This document shows, piece by piece, positions 2,205-40,981 of a stretch of 64,000 nt of DNA. This DNA comes from Candidatus Anstonellaceae archaeon (GTDB taxonomy: Archaea; Micrarchaeota; Micrarchaeia; Anstonellales; Anstonellaceae): assembly GCA_038891035.1 (NCBI GenBank), contig JAWAEW010000002.1, forward strand, positions 22,476 to 86,475. The letters are read 5' to 3'. Position 1 is the first letter of the stretch; every line of letters begins with the position of its first letter. Position numbers and translations under genes: made by a program. Below the pieces are notes generated by a model that worked only from the letters and a program-made list of their open reading frames with translations, was not told where the DNA came from and searched no databases.

Positions 2205-3548
2205 ATGAAACACAGGCCTTTTAAATTGGGCAAAAAGAAAGTGAAACGAAGAGGGATTTGGATGAGTGATGAAGCAGAAGGTGAAAAAATCGAGATTGAT
2301 AGCAAGCCCAACAAAAAGGTTGTTTTGGCATATTCTGGCGGATTGGATACTTCATGCATTTTGAAATGGCTTATCGATAAAGGGTATGAAGTAATCTGTT
2401 ATATGGCTGATATTGGGCAAAGAGAAGACTTTAAAGCGGCCAAGGAAAAGGCTATAAAGATCGGCGCTTCCAAGGTTATAATAAAGGATGTAAAAAAAGA
2501 ATTTGTTACAGACTTTATTTTTCCTGCAATAAGGGCAAACGCGATATATGAAGGCCGCTATCTTTTAGGAACTTCACTTGCGCGACCCTTGATTGCAAAA
2601 TACCAAATAGAGATTGCAAAGAAAGAGAAAGCAGCTTATGTGGCGCACGGTGCAACAGGAAAAGGAAATGACCAGGTTAGATTTGAGCTGAGCTATTATG
2701 CCTTGAAGCCAGACATAAAGATAATTGCACCATGGAAAATGCCTGAATTTCTCGAGCAATTCAGCGGTAGAGATGATTTGATAGCGTATGCAAAAAAGAA
2801 TGGTATCTCTGTAAGCGCAACCACCCAAAAGCCCTACTCAGAGGATGAAAATCTCATGCACATTTCTCACGAAGCAGGGATATTGGAGGACCCTGCTCAT
2901 ATACCAAGTGAGGAAGTCTATTCGCGCACGCGTTCACCCCAAAAAGCACCCGACAAAACAACAACCATAGAAGTGCACTTTAAGGACGGGACCCCTATAA
3001 AGATAGTGAACAGAGATGATGGGACAATAAAAACTGATCCGCTTGAGCTTTTTATGTATGCAAATGAGCTTGGAGCTGCAAATGGGATAGGAAGAGTAGA
3101 TATGGTTGAAAACCGTTTTGTAGGAATTAAATCTCGAGGTCTTTATGAGACGCCCGGGGGCACTATATTGATGGTTGCGCATCGCGATATAGAATCTATA
3201 GCAATGGATAGGGAAGTTATGCGTTTAAGGGACATGCTTTCGCCAATATATGCACAGCTTGTATATTATGGCTTCTGGTTTTCGCCAGAGATGGAATTTC
3301 TTACTGCTGCCATAAATAAGAGCCAAGAATATGTGGATGGGAAAGTAGTACTCAAACTATACAAAGGGAATGTGATGCCTGTAGCCCGATCTTCGCCTAC
3401 CTCGCTTTATGATGAAAATCTTGGTTCTATGCATAAAGCTGGCGGTTTTGACCAGAAAGACTCTGCAGGTTTCATAAAGATAAATGCGATTAGACTAATG
3501 GCGCATCGGACAATCTTGGAAAAGATAAAAAAAATGAAGAGGAACTAA
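2205..3548 (+). CDS. argG: argininosuccinate synthase
   Basis: PP-loop [12 protein letters not shown] and full-length ArgG-like body. The more likely start is ATG 2262, preceded by GAGGGA. Confidence 0.9.
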
Positions 3549-4480
3549 GATTTTTTTCTGCCAAAAATGGCAACTGCACCATACAGCAGCAAAAGAAGTA
3601 TGGCGCAGCAAATTAGATAGAGCCAGACAGACATGGCAGTTTGGAAATCAAAAAAAAGCGAAGAGGACTGAAAAATACTTATTAGGCCCCAGCCCCAAAT
3701 ACTGTTTTGACCAAGCAGCTCGAAAAATCCAAATTTTACATCAAAAATATCGCACAGCAGCACCAGCAAAGTGAGAATAAAAATAGAGACAGAAAGAGAG
3801 AAGGCCAGAAAAGAAGGCGATAAGCTTGTGCGATCAATTGGCCAAAGCAAAGAAAAGAAAAATGAAATAAACGCAAGGGCAAGGAGTGAATACGAAAGCT
3901 TTTTGACTGATTCAAAATTAGAAGTTGATGACGGAAAAGCAAATCCAGAAATGACAAATCCTACTAAATAGATGATTGCAAAATAAGCAAACCCAAGTTC
4001 GCCTCCAAGCATTCTGAAGGAATAGGAAAGGGGAATTGATGGAAACAAAAGCCACAGCAGAAGTAAAGAAATGGACAATATTGCAGCAACGATGTAAATT
4101 CCAAAAAATCCAAAAGACCAAAATATGTTAATTGAAATGAGGCCCAATAAAGCAATTATTGTTACTTCATCTGGAAACACTAAAAAAAGCTTTACGCCAG
4201 CAAAGAAAATCCCAATCAATAAAAGATTGAGATATTTCTTTTCTGCAGTTACTAGGCGCCCATTGCTTTGTTTAAGTTTGTGAAGGTAAAGCCAAAGAGA
4301 AGCTCCGCTAGAAAATAAAAAGACCGGGAAGATTAAATCTCCTGGCTGAAATTTTTGAGGGATAAGATGGAAAAATAAAGAATAAGATGGGTCTGGGGTG
4401 CAGAGTGAATGCCATAGAGAAAAAATTATGGCCAAACAGATGAAGATGCCGCGGAGATGATCGATTGCTGAAATCCTCAT
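3545..4480 (-). CDS. multi-pass membrane protein, acyltransferase-3/DUF1624-like
   Basis: About 10 predicted TM helices. N-terminal [13 protein letters not shown] resembles the R-x-x-D-x-LRG motif of acyltransferase_3/DUF1624. Start placed at the internal M so that it abuts the thrS stop. Confidence 0.4.
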
Positions 4481-4481
4481 T

Positions 4482-6380
4482 CTAAAGCCTTTGGATGATT
4501 TGGGTTTTGACACGATTGATGAAATCGTCAATTAAAACATCGTTTTCTATTTTGCCATCTCTGTGGCGTATTGCAAGCTTGCCTGAATCGAGCTCTTTTT
4601 GCCCTATTACAAGCATATATGGAATTTTTTCAAGCTGAGCCGCTCGGATTTTAGCACCTATAGTCTCTTGCTTGCAATTAGCCTCTGCCCTAATCCCTTG
4701 GGACTTCATTTTTTCTGCTAAAGTAAGTGCAAAATCATTGAATCTGTCTGAAACAGGCAAAAGAGCTACTTGGACTGGAGAAAGCCAAACTGGGAACTTG
4801 CCTGCATAGTGCTCAACCATCACACCTAGAAATCTTTCAATGCTGCCAAGTATTGCTCTGTGTAAAAGGACGCAAGTGTGCATTTTTCCATCTGGGCCTT
4901 CATATTCACACTTGAACCGCGCAGGCATTTGGAAGTCAACCTGAATAGTGGAAAGTTGCCAGCTTCTGCCTATTGCATCTTTGAAGCGAAAGTCTATCTT
5001 GGGTCCGTAAAATGCACCATCCCCAGGATTTATTTCGTATGGGATATTATTCTTTTTTAGGGCAGTTTCGAGGTGTCTCTCTGCTGCGTCCCATTGCTCA
5101 AGAGTTCCCATATATTTTTCTGGCCTGGTTGAAAGATAAGCTTTGTATTCGACTTTAAACGTGTCATTATAAACAAACTTGACGAAATCTAGCATTCCAT
5201 CTATTTCCTGGCCGATTTGTTCAGGTGTACAAAATATATGAGCATCGTCCATGCAAAGCTTTCGTACACGGGTCATCCCTCCTAAAGCCCCTCGCACCTC
5301 ATTTCTGTGAAGCATGCAAAAATCTGCAATTCTTAGGGGAAGGTCGCGGTAAGAATGTGCTTCCATGTTGTAAATTAAACAGTGCGAAGGGCAGTTCATT
5401 GGCTTGAGCGAGAATTCTTGGCCATCCACTTCAAGCAAGAACATATTCTCTTTATAGTAATCCCAATGACCAGATTTGATCCAAAGCTCCTTATTGAAAA
5501 GTTGAGGGGTTATAACCTCTTTGTATCCTCTTTTTATGTATTGTTCTCTCAAAAAGGCAAACAGTTCATTTGCAATAATTGTGCCTTTTGGCAGAAAAAA
5601 TGCGCTTCCAGGACTCCATTCATGAAAAGTGAATAGCTTAAGCTCTTGGCCAAGGCGCCGGTGGTCCCTTTTTTCTGCTTCCTCAAGCATTTTTAGATAC
5701 TCTTCCAATTGGCTCTTTTGAGGGAAGGAAATGCCGTATATTCTTTGAAGTGACTCGCGCGAAGCATCTCCCCTCCAGTATGACGATGAGACCTTTGTAA
5801 GCTTAAAAGCCTTAATTAAGCCTGTTGAAGGGAGATGTGGGCCTCGGCACAAATCATACCACTTGCCAGAGTAATACACACTATGCTGCCCATCCGGAAT
5901 CTCTTCGATAAGCTCTAACTTAAATTTGTTGTCTGCAAAGAGCCTTTTTGCCTCATCTTTTGAAAGCTCTCGGCGCACAAATTTTTGATTTTCATTAACA
6001 ATTCGTTCCATTTCCTTTTCTATCTTCGCCAAATCTTCAATACCAATTGGAGGCAAATCGGCAAAATCATAATAAAAGCCATCCTCTATAGGCGGACCTA
6101 TAGTTGGCTTTGCATTTGGATAAAGGCTAACGACTGCCTGCGCAAGGACGTGTGCTGATGAGTGCCAAAAAACTTCTTTTCCTTCTTTGGAGTCGAATGT
6201 GATTGCCTTAAAGGCGCATTCTTGTGGCAAAAGGGCAGAAAGGTCTACCAGCTTCCCATCAATTTGCGCTGCAACACTTGCCTTAAGCAAGCTCTTGCTT
6301 ATTTCAGCAATAGCATCTGCCGCCGTGGAACCTTCAGGCACTTCAATTGAAGAACCGTCTGGAAGGCGAAGTTTCGGCAT
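4482..6380 (-). CDS. thrS: threonyl-tRNA synthetase, bacterial-type architecture (TGS + SAD + class II core + anticodon-binding)
   Basis: 632 aa. N-terminal TGS-like MPKLRLPDGS, HSSAHVLAQA (the HxxxH of the second additional domain), RDHRRLGQELKLF, and class II motifs. Confidence 0.9.
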   Translation of the reverse strand: MPKLRLPDGSSIEVPEGSTAADAIAEISKSLLKASVAAQIDGKLVDLSALLPQECAFKAITFDSKEGKEVFWHSSAHVLAQAVVSLYPNAKPTIGPPIEDGFYYDFADLPPIGIEDLAKIEKEMERIVNENQKFVRRELSKDEAKRLFADNKFKLELIEEIPDGQHSVYYSGKWYDLCRGPHLPSTGLIKAFKLTKVSSSYWRGDASRESLQRIYGISFPQKSQLEEYLKMLEEAEKRDHRRLGQELKLFTFHEWSPGSAFFLPKGTIIANELFAFLREQYIKRGYKEVITPQLFNKELWIKSGHWDYYKENMFLLEVDGQEFSLKPMNCPSHCLIYNMEAHSYRDLPLRIADFCMLHRNEVRGALGGMTRVRKLCMDDAHIFCTPEQIGQEIDGMLDFVKFVYNDTFKVEYKAYLSTRPEKYMGTLEQWDAAERHLETALKKNNIPYEINPGDGAFYGPKIDFRFKDAIGRSWQLSTIQVDFQMPARFKCEYEGPDGKMHTCVLLHRAILGSIERFLGVMVEHYAGKFPVWLSPVQVALLPVSDRFNDFALTLAEKMKSQGIRAEANCKQETIGAKIRAAQLEKIPYMLVIGQKELDSGKLAIRHRDGKIENDVLIDDFINRVKTQIIQRL

Positions 6381-27464: not shown

Positions 27465-27578
27465 GAGGGCATTAAACTCTCAAAGAATATTTAATACTTG
27501 CAGAAATTTGAATGCTGCCTTTGTGCTTTCTGGAAACATTTAAATACTTGTAAGCTGAATTTTGTTGCGGCGATCAGT

Positions 27579-28640
27579 ATGGACAGCCTTGTGAAGTCCG
27601 TGCTAGGAGAGCAAGAGCCAGCTCCGACAGAAAATTTTGGCTCAGACCAGATTAAGATTGTGACAGTTGGAGTAGGCGGCGGCGGAAACAACACTATAAA
27701 CCGCCTTATTCGCTCGGGAGTCAAGGGGTGCGAGCTAATTGCGGTGAATACCGACAGGCAGCACCTCAATATGATTCACGAGAAAGCCAAGAAAATCCTT
27801 ATCGGTAAGACTATTACCAAAGGACTTGGCGCAGGCGGATACCCAGAAACCGGTGCAAAGGCCGCAGAAATTGACAGACCACTGATAGAAAAGGAGCTTG
27901 AAGGGGCCCACTTGTGCTTTATTTGCGCAGGTATGGGCGGAGGCACAGGCACTGGAGCAGCACCTGTCATTGCAGAGATTGCAAAGGAGCAAGGTGCTAT
28001 CGTAGTTGCCATGGTGACCTATCCGTTCAACCTCGAGCGCGCAAGGCGGGCAAAGGCAGACGAAGGTATTGCAAAGCTTCGCAAGCACGTCGATTCTGTA
28101 ATAGTGCTTGACAATAACAGGCTGGTGAAACTTGTTCCAAATCTGCCGATGAATGAGGCTTTTGCAGTAGCAGACGAGATTCTTGCAAAGGCAGTCGGTG
28201 GATTAGTCTGGACAATTACACAGCCATCATTGATTAACATTGATTTTGCAGATGTCCGCTCTATTGTGCAGGGTGGAGGAGTCGGCTTCATTGCAGTAGG
28301 AGAAGGGAAAGGCACTGACAAAGTCCGCGGAGCAGCAGAAGGTGTGCTTAAGAACAAGCTGCTGGACGTGGACTATGAAGGAGCAAACGGCGCGCTGATT
28401 CACATCTCAGGCGGAGCAGATCTCACACTTGGGGATGCCATTAAAGCAGGTGAAATAATCACCGAAAAGATGGATCCGCAAGCAAATGTCAAGTGGGGTG
28501 CAAGACTCATACCTGGCTATGACGGCAAGCTTGAAATAGTCGCCATAGTGACTGGGGTGAAAGGCGCAAATGTTTTTGGTGCATCTTCAGATGAACCAAG
28601 AAAAGAAGTCTCCTACTCTGACATAGAGATAATTGGATAG
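27579..28640 (+). CDS. ftsZ: cell division GTPase FtsZ (paralog 1)
   Basis: GGGGNN tubulin signature, GGGTGTG T4 loop, NLE. Start set at MDSLVKS (ATG 27579) rather than the upstream alternative start used by the track. Confidence 0.9.
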   Translation: MDSLVKSVLGEQEPAPTENFGSDQIKIVTVGVGGGGNNTINRLIRSGVKGCELIAVNTDRQHLNMIHEKAKKILIGKTITKGLGAGGYPETGAKAAEIDRPLIEKELEGAHLCFICAGMGGGTGTGAAPVIAEIAKEQGAIVVAMVTYPFNLERARRAKADEGIAKLRKHVDSVIVLDNNRLVKLVPNLPMNEAFAVADEILAKAVGGLVWTITQPSLINIDFADVRSIVQGGGVGFIAVGEGKGTDKVRGAAEGVLKNKLLDVDYEGANGALIHISGGADLTLGDAIKAGEIITEKMDPQANVKWGARLIPGYDGKLEIVAIVTGVKGANVFGASSDEPRKEVSYSDIEIIG

Positions 28641-28856: not shown

Positions 28857-29909
28857 ATGGGGGTTGGAAATATGTTTGAAAATGCGGCAGGTTCTCGGAA
28901 CGATGAATTAATTTCAAACGAGAATATTCGTATTGCAGTCGTAGGTGTTGGGGGAGGCGGTTGCAATACTGTTGACCGCATGACAAGAAACGGCATACGC
29001 TCTGCACAAACGATTGCAATAAACACAGATCAGCTCCACCTGAAAATAGTGCAAGCCCACAAGAGAGTCTTAATTGGATCTACAATTACTAAGGGACTTG
29101 GAGCTGGAGGTTTCCCTGAAGTCGCAGAAAAATGTGCAGAAGTTTCGAAAGAAAAGCTGAGAGAAGTGCTTTCGGAGAAAGAGCTCGTCTTCGTGTGTGC
29201 AGGTATGGGCGGAGGCACAGGCACTGGCGCATCACCTGTAATTGCGCAAATTGCAAAAGAGCAAGGAGCGATCGTTGTATCTGTTGTAACGATGCCATTC
29301 AGACTTGAAAGAGCAAGGATGCAGAAGGCTTTGTGGGGACTGCAGCGCCTTGCAGCTCACTCTGATACCGTGATTGCAATTGAGAATGACCGCCTTGCAA
29401 AATATGTTCCTAATTTGCCAATCAATGAGGCATTCAACCTGGCGGATGCAATAACAAGCAAGGCAATAACAGGAATTGCGGACACCATCATGCTTCCTTC
29501 TCTTATGAACATTGATTTTGCAGACGTAAAATCTGTAATGGAAAACGGAGGCTTTGCACTCCTTTCGATGGGGGAAGGAAGAGGCCCCGACAGGATCGAC
29601 CAAGTAGTAAGAAACACTCTCGAGCAGCCTTTGCTTGACATCTCAACAGAAGGCGCAAAGGGAGCACTTTTGCACATAAGCGGAGGGCCACAGCTTACAC
29701 TTGGAGAAGGCATCCAAATTGGAGAAAAAATTTCCGAGAGCTTTGACTTGAACGCAGACGTCAAAATAGGAGCCAGGCTAGATCCATCATTAGGCGACAC
29801 GATAACCTGCGCTGCAATTATTACCGGCCTGAAGAATCCGTACGTTCAGCCGAGGCCGCCAGAAGAAGAAAAGAAAGTGATAGAGCTGGATGCAATTTCA
29901 TATCTTTAG
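28857..29909 (+). CDS. ftsZ: cell division GTPase FtsZ (paralog 2)
   Basis: GVGGGGCNTV and GGGTGTGASPVIAQIAKEQGAIVV. Distinct C-terminal region from paralog 1. Confidence 0.9.
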   Translation: MGVGNMFENAAGSRNDELISNENIRIAVVGVGGGGCNTVDRMTRNGIRSAQTIAINTDQLHLKIVQAHKRVLIGSTITKGLGAGGFPEVAEKCAEVSKEKLREVLSEKELVFVCAGMGGGTGTGASPVIAQIAKEQGAIVVSVVTMPFRLERARMQKALWGLQRLAAHSDTVIAIENDRLAKYVPNLPINEAFNLADAITSKAITGIADTIMLPSLMNIDFADVKSVMENGGFALLSMGEGRGPDRIDQVVRNTLEQPLLDISTEGAKGALLHISGGPQLTLGEGIQIGEKISESFDLNADVKIGARLDPSLGDTITCAAIITGLKNPYVQPRPPEEEKKVIELDAISYL

Positions 29910-31793: not shown

Positions 31794-31894
31794 CGCCGAC
31801 GAGGAGATTTGAACTCCTAAGCCCGAAAAGGGCACCAGATTTCCTGCTTTCGCAGTCTCAAGTCTGGCGCATTACCAGGTTCTGCCACGTCGGC
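31794..31894 (-). tRNA. tRNA-Ser (anticodon UGA) with ~16-nt intron at 37/38
   Basis: Same architecture as the tRNA at 1372-1474. Anticodon stem CCAGA/TCTGG, loop CTTGAG[intron]A, long variable arm GCCC-TTTTC-GGGC, T-arm AGGAG-TTCAAAT-CTCCT. Confidence 0.7.
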
Positions 31895-35183: not shown

Positions 35184-35269
35184 GCCCCTGTAGCTCATCG
35201 GTAGAGCGGTTGTCTTGTATCCATTCGCAAGAAAACAACAGGTAGCGAGTTCAATTCTCGCCGGGGGCT
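35184..35269 (+). tRNA. tRNA-Thr (anticodon UGU) with ~14-nt intron at 37/38
   Basis: Acceptor GCCCCTG/CGGGGGC, D-arm GCTC-ATCGGTAG-AGC, anticodon stem GTTGT/ACAAC, loop CTTGTA[intron]A, T-arm GCGAG-TTCAATT-CTCGC. Confidence 0.7.
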
Positions 35270-37026: not shown

Positions 37027-38016
37027 TTACCTGAAAAGTTTTGCTAAAGATACCAGCTTTATCAGCTTGCCAAAGGGCAGGCTGGAAAGCCTGGATGAGG
37101 CTGATGAACAGAAAGCCAGCCATTTTTGGAGCTGGCGCTTGAGCGCGGCTTTCCGCAGCTTCTTTTGGCCATGGATTAGCTCAAGGGAAAGCAGAGGGGG
37201 CAGGTGCTTTTGCAGGATTTGCTTCAATCGCTCTTGATCCTCTTCTTTTGTTTTTTCAATCATCTTGATGGTTTGCTGTATTTGGTTTTCAGTAACTTTA
37301 AGCTGCTGTAAAATTTCTTCCTTGTGCTTGAGCACTATTTGCTCTGGATCACTTTCTTTTTGCCCTTTAATTTCAAGCTGCTGAGCCTGCGTGAAAAGCA
37401 GCCTGGCAAGCTCTTCCCTCTTATTGGCTTCAGCAGTTGCCTCCTGAGCTGCGCAATACAAAATAAGTGGGGTAAGCGAGTTTTGCATGATCCCATTTGC
37501 AATTGCTTGGTGGCTGTCTTGAGGCATGGTAATTTGCTGCTTCATTTTTTCTTTTTCAGTAAATGATTGGGAACGGGAGGTTTCTACTTGGGTTTCTTTC
37601 ATATCCTCATTGTAAAAGCTCCAAATTATCGGGGAGATATCCACTTCCTTTTCTTGCGAAGCCTGTTTTTGTATATTTTCAAGCACTGCTTTGCTTTTTT
37701 CTTCTATGCTTTGTGCGTTTTGGACTTCGCTCAATTTCATTGCACCTCTTACGTAGCGAGCGGCATTTTCATATCCCCATGCAAATGATGCTGCATAAAT
37801 TGCATTTTGAGCACCTGGAGTTAAAGTGGTGATAAAATCAGCTATGCCGTGCTTGCGGAAAGATTTCTCGATAACAGAAAGTGAGCCTTCAAAGTCTTTT
37901 GAATCCGAAAAAATTGGCGCCTGCTCAAGAAAAGAAGATTGGAGAAATTGCCTCTGCATTGCAGTCTGCTCTTCGTTTTCTTTCTTTTTATGCGCTTGGA
38001 GCTGGAAAACGAACAT
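37027..38016 (-). CDS. hypothetical coiled-coil protein
   Basis: 329 aa, Q/E/K-rich predicted coiled coils. No recognisable motifs. Confidence 0.3.
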   Translation of the reverse strand: MFVFQLQAHKKKENEEQTAMQRQFLQSSFLEQAPIFSDSKDFEGSLSVIEKSFRKHGIADFITTLTPGAQNAIYAASFAWGYENAARYVRGAMKLSEVQNAQSIEEKSKAVLENIQKQASQEKEVDISPIIWSFYNEDMKETQVETSRSQSFTEKEKMKQQITMPQDSHQAIANGIMQNSLTPLILYCAAQEATAEANKREELARLLFTQAQQLEIKGQKESDPEQIVLKHKEEILQQLKVTENQIQQTIKMIEKTKEEDQERLKQILQKHLPPLLSLELIHGQKKLRKAALKRQLQKWLAFCSSASSRLSSLPFGKLIKLVSLAKLFR

Positions 38017-38156: not shown

Positions 38157-38256
38157 TGCGGAGAGGAGGATTTGTTCTGCTATAATTGAACCCCCGCAGC
38201 CACTAGGGCACAGGGTCCTAAGCCCTGCGCATTTGACCAGGCTCTGCCATCTCCGC
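38157..38256 (-). tRNA. tRNA-Leu (anticodon UAG) with ~14-nt non-canonical intron in the T-loop
   Basis: Acceptor GCGGAGA/TCTCCGC, anticodon arm CAGGG-CTTAGGA-CCCTG, long variable arm. T-stem GGGGG...CCTCC encloses 21 nt (TTCAATT plus a 14-nt insert) instead of a 7-nt loop. The upstream half is closely similar to the intron-less tRNA-Leu at 42253. Confidence 0.55.
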
Positions 38257-38305: not shown

Positions 38306-39475
38306 TTGGTGAGAAAGATGAAGGATATCATTCTGCTGGTAGTCCTTTTCCTTGCTTTTGGCTGCGTGCAACAACAGACCCAGCTGCAAGTAAGCGAACA
38401 GCCACAGATAATGCCTGCTAACGAGACAAAAATCCAAAATCAGACAAAGGTAGAAGAGATATGCACAGGCAATATTGTGCAGAAGGACGGCTGTTACCTT
38501 GAACTTGCCGCAAAAGAGAAAAATCCAGAGTGGTGCAAGCAAATATATTCTGTAGACAAGACCGATGTTTGCTATAGTATGTTTGCAAACGAGAGTATGC
38601 AGTACTGTGAAAAAGTACTTCAAAAAGAGCTCAGAGAAATTTGCCTGACAGAGAACGCCAAAAAACTAAAAGATGAAAAGATCTGCTTGAGGATAGAAGA
38701 CGCCAAAAAGAGGGCCTCATGCCTTGAGCAGATTTTGCCTCATTGTATGCTGCTTAATGTGGAGGAAAGACCTCTCTGCTTTGCGCTTGAAAAGAAAGAT
38801 TATATGGAATGTCAAGGAGATTTTGCCTGCCTTCTGGCATATGCAAGGAACACCTCTGACCAGGCCGCCTGCTATGCGATGAAGGAGGAGAGAGAAAGGT
38901 ACTTCTGCCTTGCAGTCATCAAGCAAGACCCCTCTGTTTGCACACAGGCAAGCTTGGCGGCAATAAAGGATTGGTGCGTACAAAAATCAGCAGAGGAGCT
39001 TGACAGAATTGAAGCTTGCGACCTCATAACTGCGGGAACCATTTACATGGATGGCTGCTACTTTTATTTTGCTGCAAAAAAGAAGGACAGCACAATATGC
39101 ATGAAGGCTTCCCGTGAGGAAAAGAGGGATGAATGCCTGATAAATTATGCCATAAGCACAAGCGATAGCTCAGTGTGCAAAAATGTAATTGAATCTACTG
39201 CAAGGATATCATGCTATTACAAATCCGCAAAGGAAAATAGGATGCCATCGCTTTGCAACCCGCTTTCTACTGGCCAGCTGAAAAGGGAATGCTATTCACT
39301 CAGCATATTTTCAGAGTATGGTCCACTGGCTTCTGATTGCTATTTTGTAGAAAACCAAGAATGGAAAGATAAGTGCTTTAGGGAAGCTGCAATAAAGAGT
39401 TCAAATGCGAGTCTGTGTGATATGATAAGCCCTGGCTCGGATAAAGATTATTGCGAGGACATATTAGGAGGCTAG
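38306..39475 (+). CDS. cysteine-rich repeat lipoprotein (novel ~35-aa repeat)
   Basis: Signal peptide with lipobox LAFGC. About 9 degenerate repeats of the form DGCY-x-E/F-AAK-x6-C-x-Q/I...D-x-C. Confidence 0.5.
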   Translation: MVRKMKDIILLVVLFLAFGCVQQQTQLQVSEQPQIMPANETKIQNQTKVEEICTGNIVQKDGCYLELAAKEKNPEWCKQIYSVDKTDVCYSMFANESMQYCEKVLQKELREICLTENAKKLKDEKICLRIEDAKKRASCLEQILPHCMLLNVEERPLCFALEKKDYMECQGDFACLLAYARNTSDQAACYAMKEERERYFCLAVIKQDPSVCTQASLAAIKDWCVQKSAEELDRIEACDLITAGTIYMDGCYFYFAAKKKDSTICMKASREEKRDECLINYAISTSDSSVCKNVIESTARISCYYKSAKENRMPSLCNPLSTGQLKRECYSLSIFSEYGPLASDCYFVENQEWKDKCFREAAIKSSNASLCDMISPGSDKDYCEDILGG

Positions 39476-40200
39476 CTTTTCTTTTTTGCTTTTTTTGGCT
39501 TTTTTTGTTCTTCTTCAGCTTGAGCCATGGTTTGCTGCTGCACTTCAGTTTGCGCTTCCGGCTGGTTGGGAGCTTCTTGCGGCTCTTGTAGGGAAGATTC
39601 TTTTTGCTTTTCTGACTCAAATGCAGAAAGCGGAGTGGTAAATTCATCATAAGAGCCGATCTTGTTTTTTGCCATCAAGTACTCCCGAGCCAAAAGATAG
39701 AAGATAAGGGCTAGCGAACGCCGCCCCTTATTGTTGCATGGAACGACCCAGTCGATAAACATAGTCACATTGTCAGTATCGCAAAGACCGATTATGGGGA
39801 TGCCGACTTTGCCTGCCTCGATTACTGCTTGTTTTTCACCTTTCGGGTCGCACACTAAAAGCAATTTCGGCTCAACAAAGTCCTCTCTTGCAACATTGGT
39901 GAACAGACCAGGTATAAACCTACCTTGAAACACCTTTATTCCCGTAAGGGCAGAGAATACAGAGGCGGCATTACCAGAGTAAGTTCTTGAGGCAACGACT
40001 AGTATCTCTTCGGGCTCATATCTACCAAGCATTTTGGCTGCAAGTCGCAACCTTTCGTCAATTTTGCGCAAATCAAGCACATAAAGGCCGTCGTTTCTCA
40101 TTTTGTATATGAATTGCCTCATATCTACAGTCTTAAGTTTGGTTCCGATATGTATTCCAGCCTCAAGATAGGCTTCTTGCTTTATCAGCAAACTATCCAT
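39472..40200 (-). CDS. rps2: 30S ribosomal protein S2 (uS2) with ~45-aa acidic/Q-rich C-terminal tail
   Basis: LLIKQEAYLEAGIHIGTK and VLDLRKIDERLRLAAK in the conserved core. C-terminal tail ...QEPQEAPNQPEAQTEVQQQTMAQAEEEQKKPKKAKKKS. Confidence 0.9.
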   Translation of the reverse strand: MDSLLIKQEAYLEAGIHIGTKLKTVDMRQFIYKMRNDGLYVLDLRKIDERLRLAAKMLGRYEPEEILVVASRTYSGNAASVFSALTGIKVFQGRFIPGLFTNVAREDFVEPKLLLVCDPKGEKQAVIEAGKVGIPIIGLCDTDNVTMFIDWVVPCNNKGRRSLALIFYLLAREYLMAKNKIGSYDEFTTPLSAFESEKQKESSLQEPQEAPNQPEAQTEVQQQTMAQAEEEQKKPKKAKKKS

Positions 40201-40269
40201 ATTTTCACCTTTTTGCGGATGGCTGCAGGCACTTTCACACCACTCTCAGCACAACCGCTTGCGCATAAA

Positions 40270-40374
40270 TGGGGCCATCGAGATTTGAATTTTCGGAATC
40301 CGGCAAAATGCCAAGACCCACTCGAATCACCAGCACCCCAAGCTGGCAGGATAGCCAGGTTACCCCATGGCCCC
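40270..40374 (-). tRNA. tRNA-Pro (anticodon GGG) with ~31-nt intron inside the T-arm
   Basis: Acceptor GGGGCCA/TGGCCCC (7 bp), anticodon arm CCAGC-TTGGGGT-GCTGG. T-stem TCGAG...CTCGA is interrupted by a 31-nt insertion before the loop TTCAAAT. The D-arm is imperfect (3 bp plus a U-U mismatch). Confidence 0.45.
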
Positions 40375-40525
40375 TTATTTGTCGAAAGGCAATTAAAAAT
40401 CTTCCACCTTCCAAAGTGCGCCGGCAAAAGCTTCCAAAGCCTTGCCGGGCTTCAAGCAACCAACGTATGCAAAAAGATATATAAAAGATGAAGATGGGGA
40501 TAATGCAGAAAAAACTGGAATTAGC

Positions 40526-40741
40526 TTATCTTTTGCTTTTAACTGATTTGATTGTCATGAGGCGTTTTCTGCCACAGTTTTTGCATTCGATTTGGATGAT
40601 CTTTGTGATTTTTAGTTCTGGAGAAAGGCATTTATGGCAATAGGCATGTTCCAGTTCTTCTTCGAGGTTTGTTTTCGTCAGCTTTTCGGCGCCGTATGGC
40701 TTGTCATCGCAATCAATCAGGTGGGCCTGGGTTGCTTTCAT
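40526..40741 (-). CDS. small zinc-ribbon protein (CxxC...CxxC), possibly RpoP/Zn-ribbon r-protein-like
   Basis: 71 aa with YCHKC and ECKNCG separated by 15 aa. Sits between RpoN and S2, where RpoK and enolase sit in most archaea. Confidence 0.3.
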   Translation of the reverse strand: MKATQAHLIDCDDKPYGAEKLTKTNLEEELEHAYCHKCLSPELKITKIIQIECKNCGRKRLMTIKSVKSKR

Positions 40742-40783: not shown

Positions 40784-40981
40784 TCAGTAGCGCTTGTAGC
40801 GTGCAATCTTTTCCATTGCGTCAACGTGCGAAAGGAACATCCTGCGACAACAGTAGCGCTCAATGCCAAGCCAATCCAAAGTTTTTGCAGGATCCTCCCC
40901 GTTTTTTACCTTTTCAGAGTATTTCTCATAAAGATGACCGATCACTGCGCCACAGCTGAAGCATCTGACTGGGAAATACAT
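40784..40981 (-). CDS. rpoN: DNA-directed RNA polymerase subunit N (Rpo10)
   Basis: PVRCFSCGAVIG and RYCCRRM, the conserved Rpb10/RpoN zinc bundle. Confidence 0.8.
   Translation of the reverse strand: MYFPVRCFSCGAVIGHLYEKYSEKVKNGEDPAKTLDWLGIERYCCRRMFLSHVDAMEKIARYKRY

Follow-up and report, generated by a model that had tools for sequence, protein, structure and literature searches.

A probable bulge-helix-bulge intron at the non-canonical position 53/54 of a tRNA-Pro(GGG) gene in a Micrarchaeia archaeon

Interruption of a proline tRNA between the T-stem and the T-loop has been described in Candidatus Micrarchaeum acidiphilum ARMAN-2, where pre-tRNA-Pro(GGG) carries a strict hBHBh' intron at position 53/54 and a second intron at position 59/60 (Fujishima et al. 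2011, NAR 39:9695, Fig. 1C; PMC3239211). The three-unit epsilon2 endonuclease of this organism cuts canonical as well as non-canonical motifs in vitro, as reported for the non-canonical intron of another tRNA (PMC3239211). Position 53/54 is also among the archaeal intron positions listed in a review (Yoshihisa 2014, PMC4090602). The non-canonical bulge-helix-bulge (BHB) introns of the Crenarchaeota/Thermoproteales and of other archaea with (alpha-beta)2 endonucleases (PMC4090602) form a second group with which the locus described here can be compared. The likeness lies in being protein-spliced, in a position outside 37/38, in a motif built partly from exon sequence and in a mature arm that exists only after splicing. 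However, those hosts belong to the TACK archaea and have (alpha-beta)2 endonucleases, whereas the present host is a DPANN archaeon for which an epsilon2 enzyme would be expected from PMC3239211.

Here we report on a 64-kb stretch of DNA (hereafter the window) from a Candidatus Anstonellaceae archaeon, a member of the class Micrarchaeia (DPANN) and the order Anstonellales. It very probably contains a functional tRNA-Pro(GGG) gene that is split at the non-canonical position 53/54 by an archaeal BHB intron of 31 nt. Compared by published description, this gene shares with its ARMAN-2 counterpart the GGG isoacceptor, the class Micrarchaeia, the 53/54 intron and the strict hBHBh' type. It differs in that ARMAN-2 has the additional 59/60 intron, while the window gene and all 12 homologues have a single intron and a contiguous T-loop UUCAAAU. 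The host orders differ as well (Micrarchaeales for ARMAN-2, Anstonellales here). A split tRNA-Pro(GGG) of this kind was thus already described in 2011, and the value of the present case is one of annotation.

The gene lies in a series of minus-strand genes in the order S13, S4, S11, RpoD, tRNA-Leu(GAG), L18e, L13, S9, RpoN (40784-40981), a 71-aa ORF (40526-40741), tRNA-Pro and S2 (39472-40200). The S2 protein matches its counterpart in a Candidatus Anstonellaceae MAG (L001, JAWAKW010000003.1) at 100% identity and those in three other Micrarchaeia/Micrarchaeota MAGs at 73-77%. RpoN and the 71-aa ORF of L001 each differ from the window by one residue (~98.5% identity), so that the window would stem from a near-identical strain or a different assembly. 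In all four genomes the split tRNA-Pro is found just upstream of rpsB, and the order rpoN, tRNA-Pro, rpsB is conserved. The first-pass annotation had placed the tRNA in the slot between S2 and RpoN, where RpoK and enolase usually sit. This description fits the lineage, as the tRNA directly follows rpoN in the remaining three genomes (L002-L004), but direct adjacency to RpoN does not apply to the window itself, where the 71-aa ORF intervenes. The latter encodes a zinc-ribbon-like CxxC...CxxC pattern, is present in the window and L001 only (98.6% identity), is absent from L002-L004 and has no significant Pfam match. An assignment of this ORF as RpoK was considered and rejected, being unsupported by Pfam and involving an ORF that is missing from L002-L004. 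Neither RpoK nor enolase could be identified in the interval from RpoN to S2.

As read from the sequence, the pre-tRNA-Pro(GGG) is 105 nt long and occupies 40374..40270 on the minus strand, with G1 at 40374 and the discriminator A73 at 40270. These limits follow from the sequence, from ARAGORN after intron removal and from the homologous loci (L002-L004 and L010-L020). CCA is not encoded. With the intron in brackets, the precursor reads, from 5' to 3', GGGGCCA UG GGGU AACCUGGCUA UCCU G CCAGC UUGGGGU GCUGG UGAU UCGAG [UGGGUCUUGGCAUUUUGCCGGAUUCCGAAAA] UUCAAAU CUCGA UGGCCCC A. Exon 1 (40321..40374, minus strand) corresponds to tRNA positions 1-53 and comprises the 5' strand of the acceptor stem, the D-arm, the anticodon arm, the variable loop and the 5' strand of the T-stem, as defined by identity to relatives and by cloverleaf pairing. 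Exon 2 (40270..40289, minus strand) corresponds to positions 54-73, that is, the T-loop UUCAAAU, the 3' strands of the T-stem and the acceptor stem, and A73, as indicated by ARAGORN and the homologues. Between G53 and U54 lies the putative intron of 31 nt, UGGGUCUUGGCAUUUUGCCGGAUUCCGAAAA (40290..40320, minus strand). Its removal results in a canonical T-arm, and homologous inserts occupy the same site.

The cloverleaf elements that the first-pass annotation had listed were all recovered on the minus strand. The acceptor stem GGGGCCA/UGGCCCC has 7 bp and is followed by A73. The anticodon arm is CCAGC-UUGGGGU-GCUGG, with the proline anticodon GGG (40337..40339, minus strand) located between U33 and G37 in the ARAGORN drawing and invariant across all homologues, and the T-arm of the spliced molecule combines the stem UCGAG/CUCGA with the loop UUCAAAU. 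The D-arm, which had been noted for its 3 bp plus a U-U mismatch, indeed reads G10-U25, G11-C24, G12-C23 and U13-U22. In most relatives position 22 is a G, which gives a U-G pair with U13. A mismatch at 13:22 is frequent, and the weakness of this D-arm is harmless. Weak D-arms have also been described for the tRNA-Pro(CGG) and tRNA-Pro(UGG) of ARMAN-2 (Fujishima et al. 2011, PMC3239211).

When the 31 nt (40320..40290) were deleted in silico, ARAGORN called a 74-nt tRNA-Pro(GGG). Inspection by eye and of the ARAGORN drawing revealed that this product has U8, A14, G18G19, A21, U33, G37, G53, U54-U55-C56-A57-A58, C61 and A73, so that it agrees with the RF00005 cloverleaf at all conserved bases checked. 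Upstream of the gene, at -25 to -17, an A/T-rich box UUUUUAAUU (40391..40399, minus strand) is weakly indicated as a possible TATA-like promoter element by its likeness to the boxes of other tRNA genes in the window. Five other tRNA genes of the window are preceded by such A/T-rich boxes at a distance of 22-34 nt, and UUUUUAAUU sits closer to its gene. No conservation of this box was found in the homologues.

The uninterrupted product is recognized readily, but the gene as it stands in the genome is overlooked by standard tRNA finders. ARAGORN did not call the unspliced tRNA-Pro(GGG) when run on the 64-kb window, and the Rfam tRNA model did not match the unspliced region, either at the gathering threshold or locally at E<=10. 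Exon 1 alone, searched for a partial tRNA match, did not match a tRNA model either, and the Rfam matches that were returned for the region are noise (CRISPR-DR38, mir-7383 and MESTIT1_3, with E ~4-6). The lack of an RF00005 match for the genomic sequence is attributable to the model, which has no room for 31 additional nt where the T-stem meets the T-loop. The covariance-model scoring covered the genomic (unspliced) sequence, whole or as exon 1 only, and is uninformative rather than negative as to a tRNA-Pro. In a deletion scan with ARAGORN, 89 of the 3817 variants were called tRNA-Pro(GGG), and among the calls listed at least 60 start at precursor positions 51-71, with deletions that overlap the insert or lie within it. 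ARAGORN is too tolerant to define the exact junction, and it is the BHB geometry, together with the base that begins the intron in relatives, that places it at 53/54. A second, intact tRNA-Pro(GGG), which according to the first-pass annotation would refute its call in combination with a fold unsupported by covariance models, was detected nowhere within the 64-kb window by either ARAGORN or Rfam.

When folded locally, the T-region of the precursor adopts a 3-4-3 BHB, which is also the unconstrained MFE structure (-11.5 kcal/mol). Its central 4-bp helix is formed by the exon strand UUCG (40323..40326, minus strand) and the intron strand CGAA (40292..40295, minus strand), as seen in the local MFE fold and in the pairing of the homologues, where it is paired in 11 of 11 introns. 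At the 5' splice site, the bulge AG↓U (40320..40322, minus strand; the arrow marks the predicted cut) would be cleaved after G53 (40321), an assignment that is based on the fold, the homologues and the geometry of the tRNA-Thr(UGU) intron. At the 3' splice site, the bulge AA↓U (40289..40291, minus strand) would be cleaved before U54 (40289), in agreement with the fold and with an intron end AA or AC in all homologues. On the exon side, the local fold contains the helix h, in which the 3' strand UCA (40286..40288, minus strand; tRNA 55-57) pairs with UGA at 40327-40329 (tRNA 44-46) through three Watson-Crick pairs. On the intron side, the helix h' (40296..40319, minus strand) pairs GGGUCU (40314-40319) with GGAUUC (40296-40301) through G-C, U-A, C-G and three G-U pairs, and is capped by the hairpin GGCA-UUU-UGCC (40302-40312). 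If each bulge is cut behind its second base, G53 becomes joined to U54 and the intron at 53/54 is 31 nt long. Since a strict hBHBh' motif is defined by helices h and h' of at least 2 Watson-Crick pairs each (PMC7714728), the motif at position 53/54 of the window tRNA-Pro belongs to the strict type. The insertion of about 31 nt in the T-arm near 53/54, as originally proposed from the letters of the sequence, is thus exactly 31 nt long and is borne out by in silico splicing, by a strict BHB and by compensatory changes in relatives.

An internal control for the register of the cuts is provided by tRNA-Thr(UGU) (35184-35269, plus strand), which has a 14-nt canonical intron at 37/38 with the helix CUUG/CAAG and the bulges UA↓U and AA↓A. 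The two introns share a 3-4-3 geometry, and on either strand the cut would follow the second base of the bulge. They differ in their location, which is the anticodon loop in tRNA-Thr(UGU) and the T-stem/T-loop junction in tRNA-Pro(GGG), and in the fact that canonical introns are detected by the Rfam model and ARAGORN. For the full-length precursor, the calculated energies of the BHB conformer (-35.0 kcal/mol) and the T-arm conformer (-35.6 kcal/mol) are about equal, and the full-length MFE structure (-45 kcal/mol) differs from both the cloverleaf and the BHB conformer. An MFE fold other than the cloverleaf is common for tRNAs, but in the full precursor the energies by themselves do not single out the motif. 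Because the full-length MFE is non-cloverleaf, we gave whole-molecule thermodynamics no weight in either direction.

Interrupted tRNA genes are frequent in this genome segment. At least five of the seven tRNA genes in the 64 kb are interrupted, including those for tRNA-Pro(GGG) and tRNA-Leu(UAG), and this fraction is similarly high as in ARMAN-2, where 56% of the tRNA genes are interrupted (PMC3239211). tRNA-Leu(UAG) (38157-38256, minus strand) has an insert of ~14-16 nt within the T-loop (UUCAA[...]CCUCC), near positions 58-60. It resembles tRNA-Pro(GGG) in having an insert in the T-arm region, but the insert is inside the loop and the Rfam model still scores the gene at 43.7 bits. The presence of this T-loop insert would imply that the host genome processes T-arm introns. 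Two near-identical class-II tRNA genes with a long variable arm (1371-1474 and 31794-31894, minus strand) have anticodon-loop inserts of 19-23 nt.

Homologues of the split gene were collected from four Micrarchaeia genome assemblies (L001-L004) and from metagenome contigs. The copies in the genome assemblies were found by blastn-short, and the metagenome contigs were scanned with a pattern of 26 nt (25 of them specified) taken from the 3'-terminal part of exon 1. This pattern matches irrespective of whether an intron follows, and it yielded 11 further loci. Together these amount to 12 distinct precursors, in all of which the insert directly follows ...UUCGAG, with lengths of 22, 31, 33, 34, 35, 37 or 141 nt. 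An intronless copy was not encountered among the matches to the intron-neutral exon-1 pattern. Exon 1 is 92-96% identical in genomes where the S2 protein reaches no more than 73-77% identity, and exon 2 is conserved as well. Most of the insert has no detectable similarity among the four genomes, and over the 12 distinct inserts only the 3'-terminal CGRR plus AA or AC is conserved, 6 nt from which the BHB is built. Depending on the lineage, the intron begins with U, A or C. As this first base is A or C in relatives, a reading of the intron at 54/55 is excluded and the 53/54 reading is kept.

Covariation was assessed in two alignments. In the alignment of 6 distinct spliced sequences (A2), the cloverleaf is 97% paired, both sides change at 4:69, 7:66, 11:24 and 26:44, the observed covariation score is not attained in any of 500 shuffles, and sliding the register lowers the paired fraction to 37-53%; as in the second alignment, the sequences are related and were aligned in register by construction. 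The second alignment (A3) contains 11 distinct precursors, each represented by exon 1, the first 7 and the last 13 intron nt, and exon 2. Here all 11 keep the central BHB helix paired, and its only changes are from U-A to U-G. The first two h' pairs beside the bulge are kept in 9 and 11 of the 11 precursors, with the pair types GC/CG/UG and GC/GU/UA, respectively. Two of the three exon-side h pairs are kept in all 11 and the third in 4 of 11. Some relatives retain just 1-2 bp of h or h', which corresponds to a relaxed motif; in L012 and L019 this concerns the intron-side helix.

These data allow alternative explanations of the locus to be weighed. One is that it represents a decaying tRNA-Pro pseudogene that was disrupted by a random 31-nt insertion, for which the failure of standard detectors to call the locus and the U13-U22 mismatch in the D-stem of the window copy could be taken as signs. 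However, the exons are almost invariant in 12 distinct lineages while the insert diverges freely, compensatory double changes maintain the stems, and the helix and bulges for excision are always retained in the insert. This pattern is preserved even though the S2 proteins are only 73-77% identical, and we consider a pseudogene highly improbable. It could also be argued that a tRNA-like pattern arose by chance in an intergenic region or an overlapping ORF (e.g. 40114-40491, plus strand), since mechanical ORFs of 71-125 aa overlap the locus on both strands. Against such a coincidence, an acceptor stem of 7 bp, an anticodon stem of 5 bp and a T-stem of 5 bp occur together with the conserved positions and a strict BHB. 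Moreover, the conservation follows the exon/intron boundaries of the RNA rather than codons, and no reading frame would survive inserts of such variable length (22-141 nt). A chance resemblance is therefore effectively refuted, and its probability can be regarded as negligible.

A further question is whether the insert might be retained in the mature molecule, which would then be a tRNA-like RNA with an enlarged T-arm or another structured non-coding RNA. Splicing has been deduced here from sequence, and the insert does contain a stable hairpin, both of which would be compatible with retention. Yet a length of anywhere between 22 and 141 nt, combined with a lack of sequence conservation outside the 6 BHB nt, is the hallmark of a spliced intron rather than of a functional domain, and docking of the T-loop on the D-loop would be impossible with the insert in place. 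In addition, the ARMAN-2 counterpart was interpreted as an intron in the published work, and the ARMAN-2 endonuclease cut the non-canonical intron of another tRNA (PMC3239211). Retention of the insert thus appears very unlikely. The longest insert belongs to a tRNA-Pro(GGG) with a 141-nt intron, found in L013 (Ga0209541_10264873, ~1337-1100, minus strand) and also in L014. It resembles the 35-nt intron type of L016 with ~106 nt added near the 3' end, between two GGACC repeats, and the L013 intron folds into three long hairpins and has no Rfam match. Either intron nesting or the insertion of a small element could account for this 141-nt intron.

A functional tRNA-Pro(GGG) gene with a BHB intron is hence the reading that we favour. 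The sequence of the gene, its BHB motif, its conservation, the covariation and the in silico product are matters of direct observation. The expression of the gene, the cleavage and ligation of its transcript and the enzymes involved are inferred; by analogy with established archaeal tRNA splicing, maturation would proceed as follows. In the precursor, tRNA positions 44-51 (variable loop and 5' strand of the T-stem) would not form the T-arm but would be base-paired to the 3'-terminal part of the intron and to T-loop positions 55-57. The resulting hBHBh' would consist of UGA/UCA, the bulge AA↓U, the helix UUCG/CGAA, the bulge AG↓U and the intron helix GGGUCU/GGAUUC. An archaeal tRNA splicing endonuclease, presumably of the broad-specificity epsilon2 type in this lineage, would cut both bulges, and an RNA ligase such as RtcB would join G53 to U54. 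The predicted spliced junction connects ...UUCGAG directly to UUCAAAUC..., upon which the T-stem UCGAG/CUCGA and the T-loop UUCAAAU would form, yielding a 74-nt tRNA that reads CCY proline codons. The T-arm of the precursor cannot form until the intron is removed.

No splicing endonuclease domain was present among the scanned ORFs of 320-450 aa in the 64-kb window, which contain domains of other kinds or none, and the corresponding gene is expected elsewhere in the genome. An alpha4-type enzyme (~177 aa) would be a surprising candidate, as this type is reported to cleave canonical strict motifs only. A 389-aa ORF (38306-39475, plus strand), which has the same length as the ARMAN enzyme, was considered as an epsilon2 endonuclease and dismissed, as it has no Pfam or PDB match. 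This ORF has a TTG start and converges on rpsB. It is one of three ORFs of 328-389 aa without a Pfam match, the others being located at 37027-38016 (minus strand) and 3545-4531 (minus strand); for 38306-39475 and 37027-38016 this holds even at E<=10. The window also contains a tandem pair of FtsZ/tubulin-family genes (27498-28640 and 28857-29909, both on the plus strand).

For annotation, the consequence is that a genome bin of this lineage would seem to be without a G34 tRNA for the CCU/CCC proline codons, since both ARAGORN and the Rfam tRNA model overlook the gene. A tRNA-Pro that is missed in this way can distort completeness estimates and decoding inferences for DPANN archaea. At the level of the intron itself, the locus exemplifies a non-canonical intron of which the position is fixed while sequence and length (22-141 nt) drift in at least 12 Micrarchaeia lineages; no new mechanism is revealed by it.

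Taken together with the 2011 report on ARMAN-2, the 12 homologues suggest that the 53/54 intron predates the split of the two Micrarchaeia orders Micrarchaeales and Anstonellales. This bears on the debate whether archaeal tRNA introns were recently gained or have been retained. A tentative extension, to which we attach somewhat less than even weight, is that the tRNA-Pro(GGG) intron at 53/54 is of ancient origin, has been passed on vertically and is kept by selection across the whole class Micrarchaeia, with a role of its own that resides in the intron or in the obligatory refolding of the T-arm. If this is true, routine tRNA finders would systematically under-count tRNA-Pro in DPANN genome bins, and the 53/54 intron might serve, for example, as a maturation checkpoint or as a protection of the gene against integrating elements.
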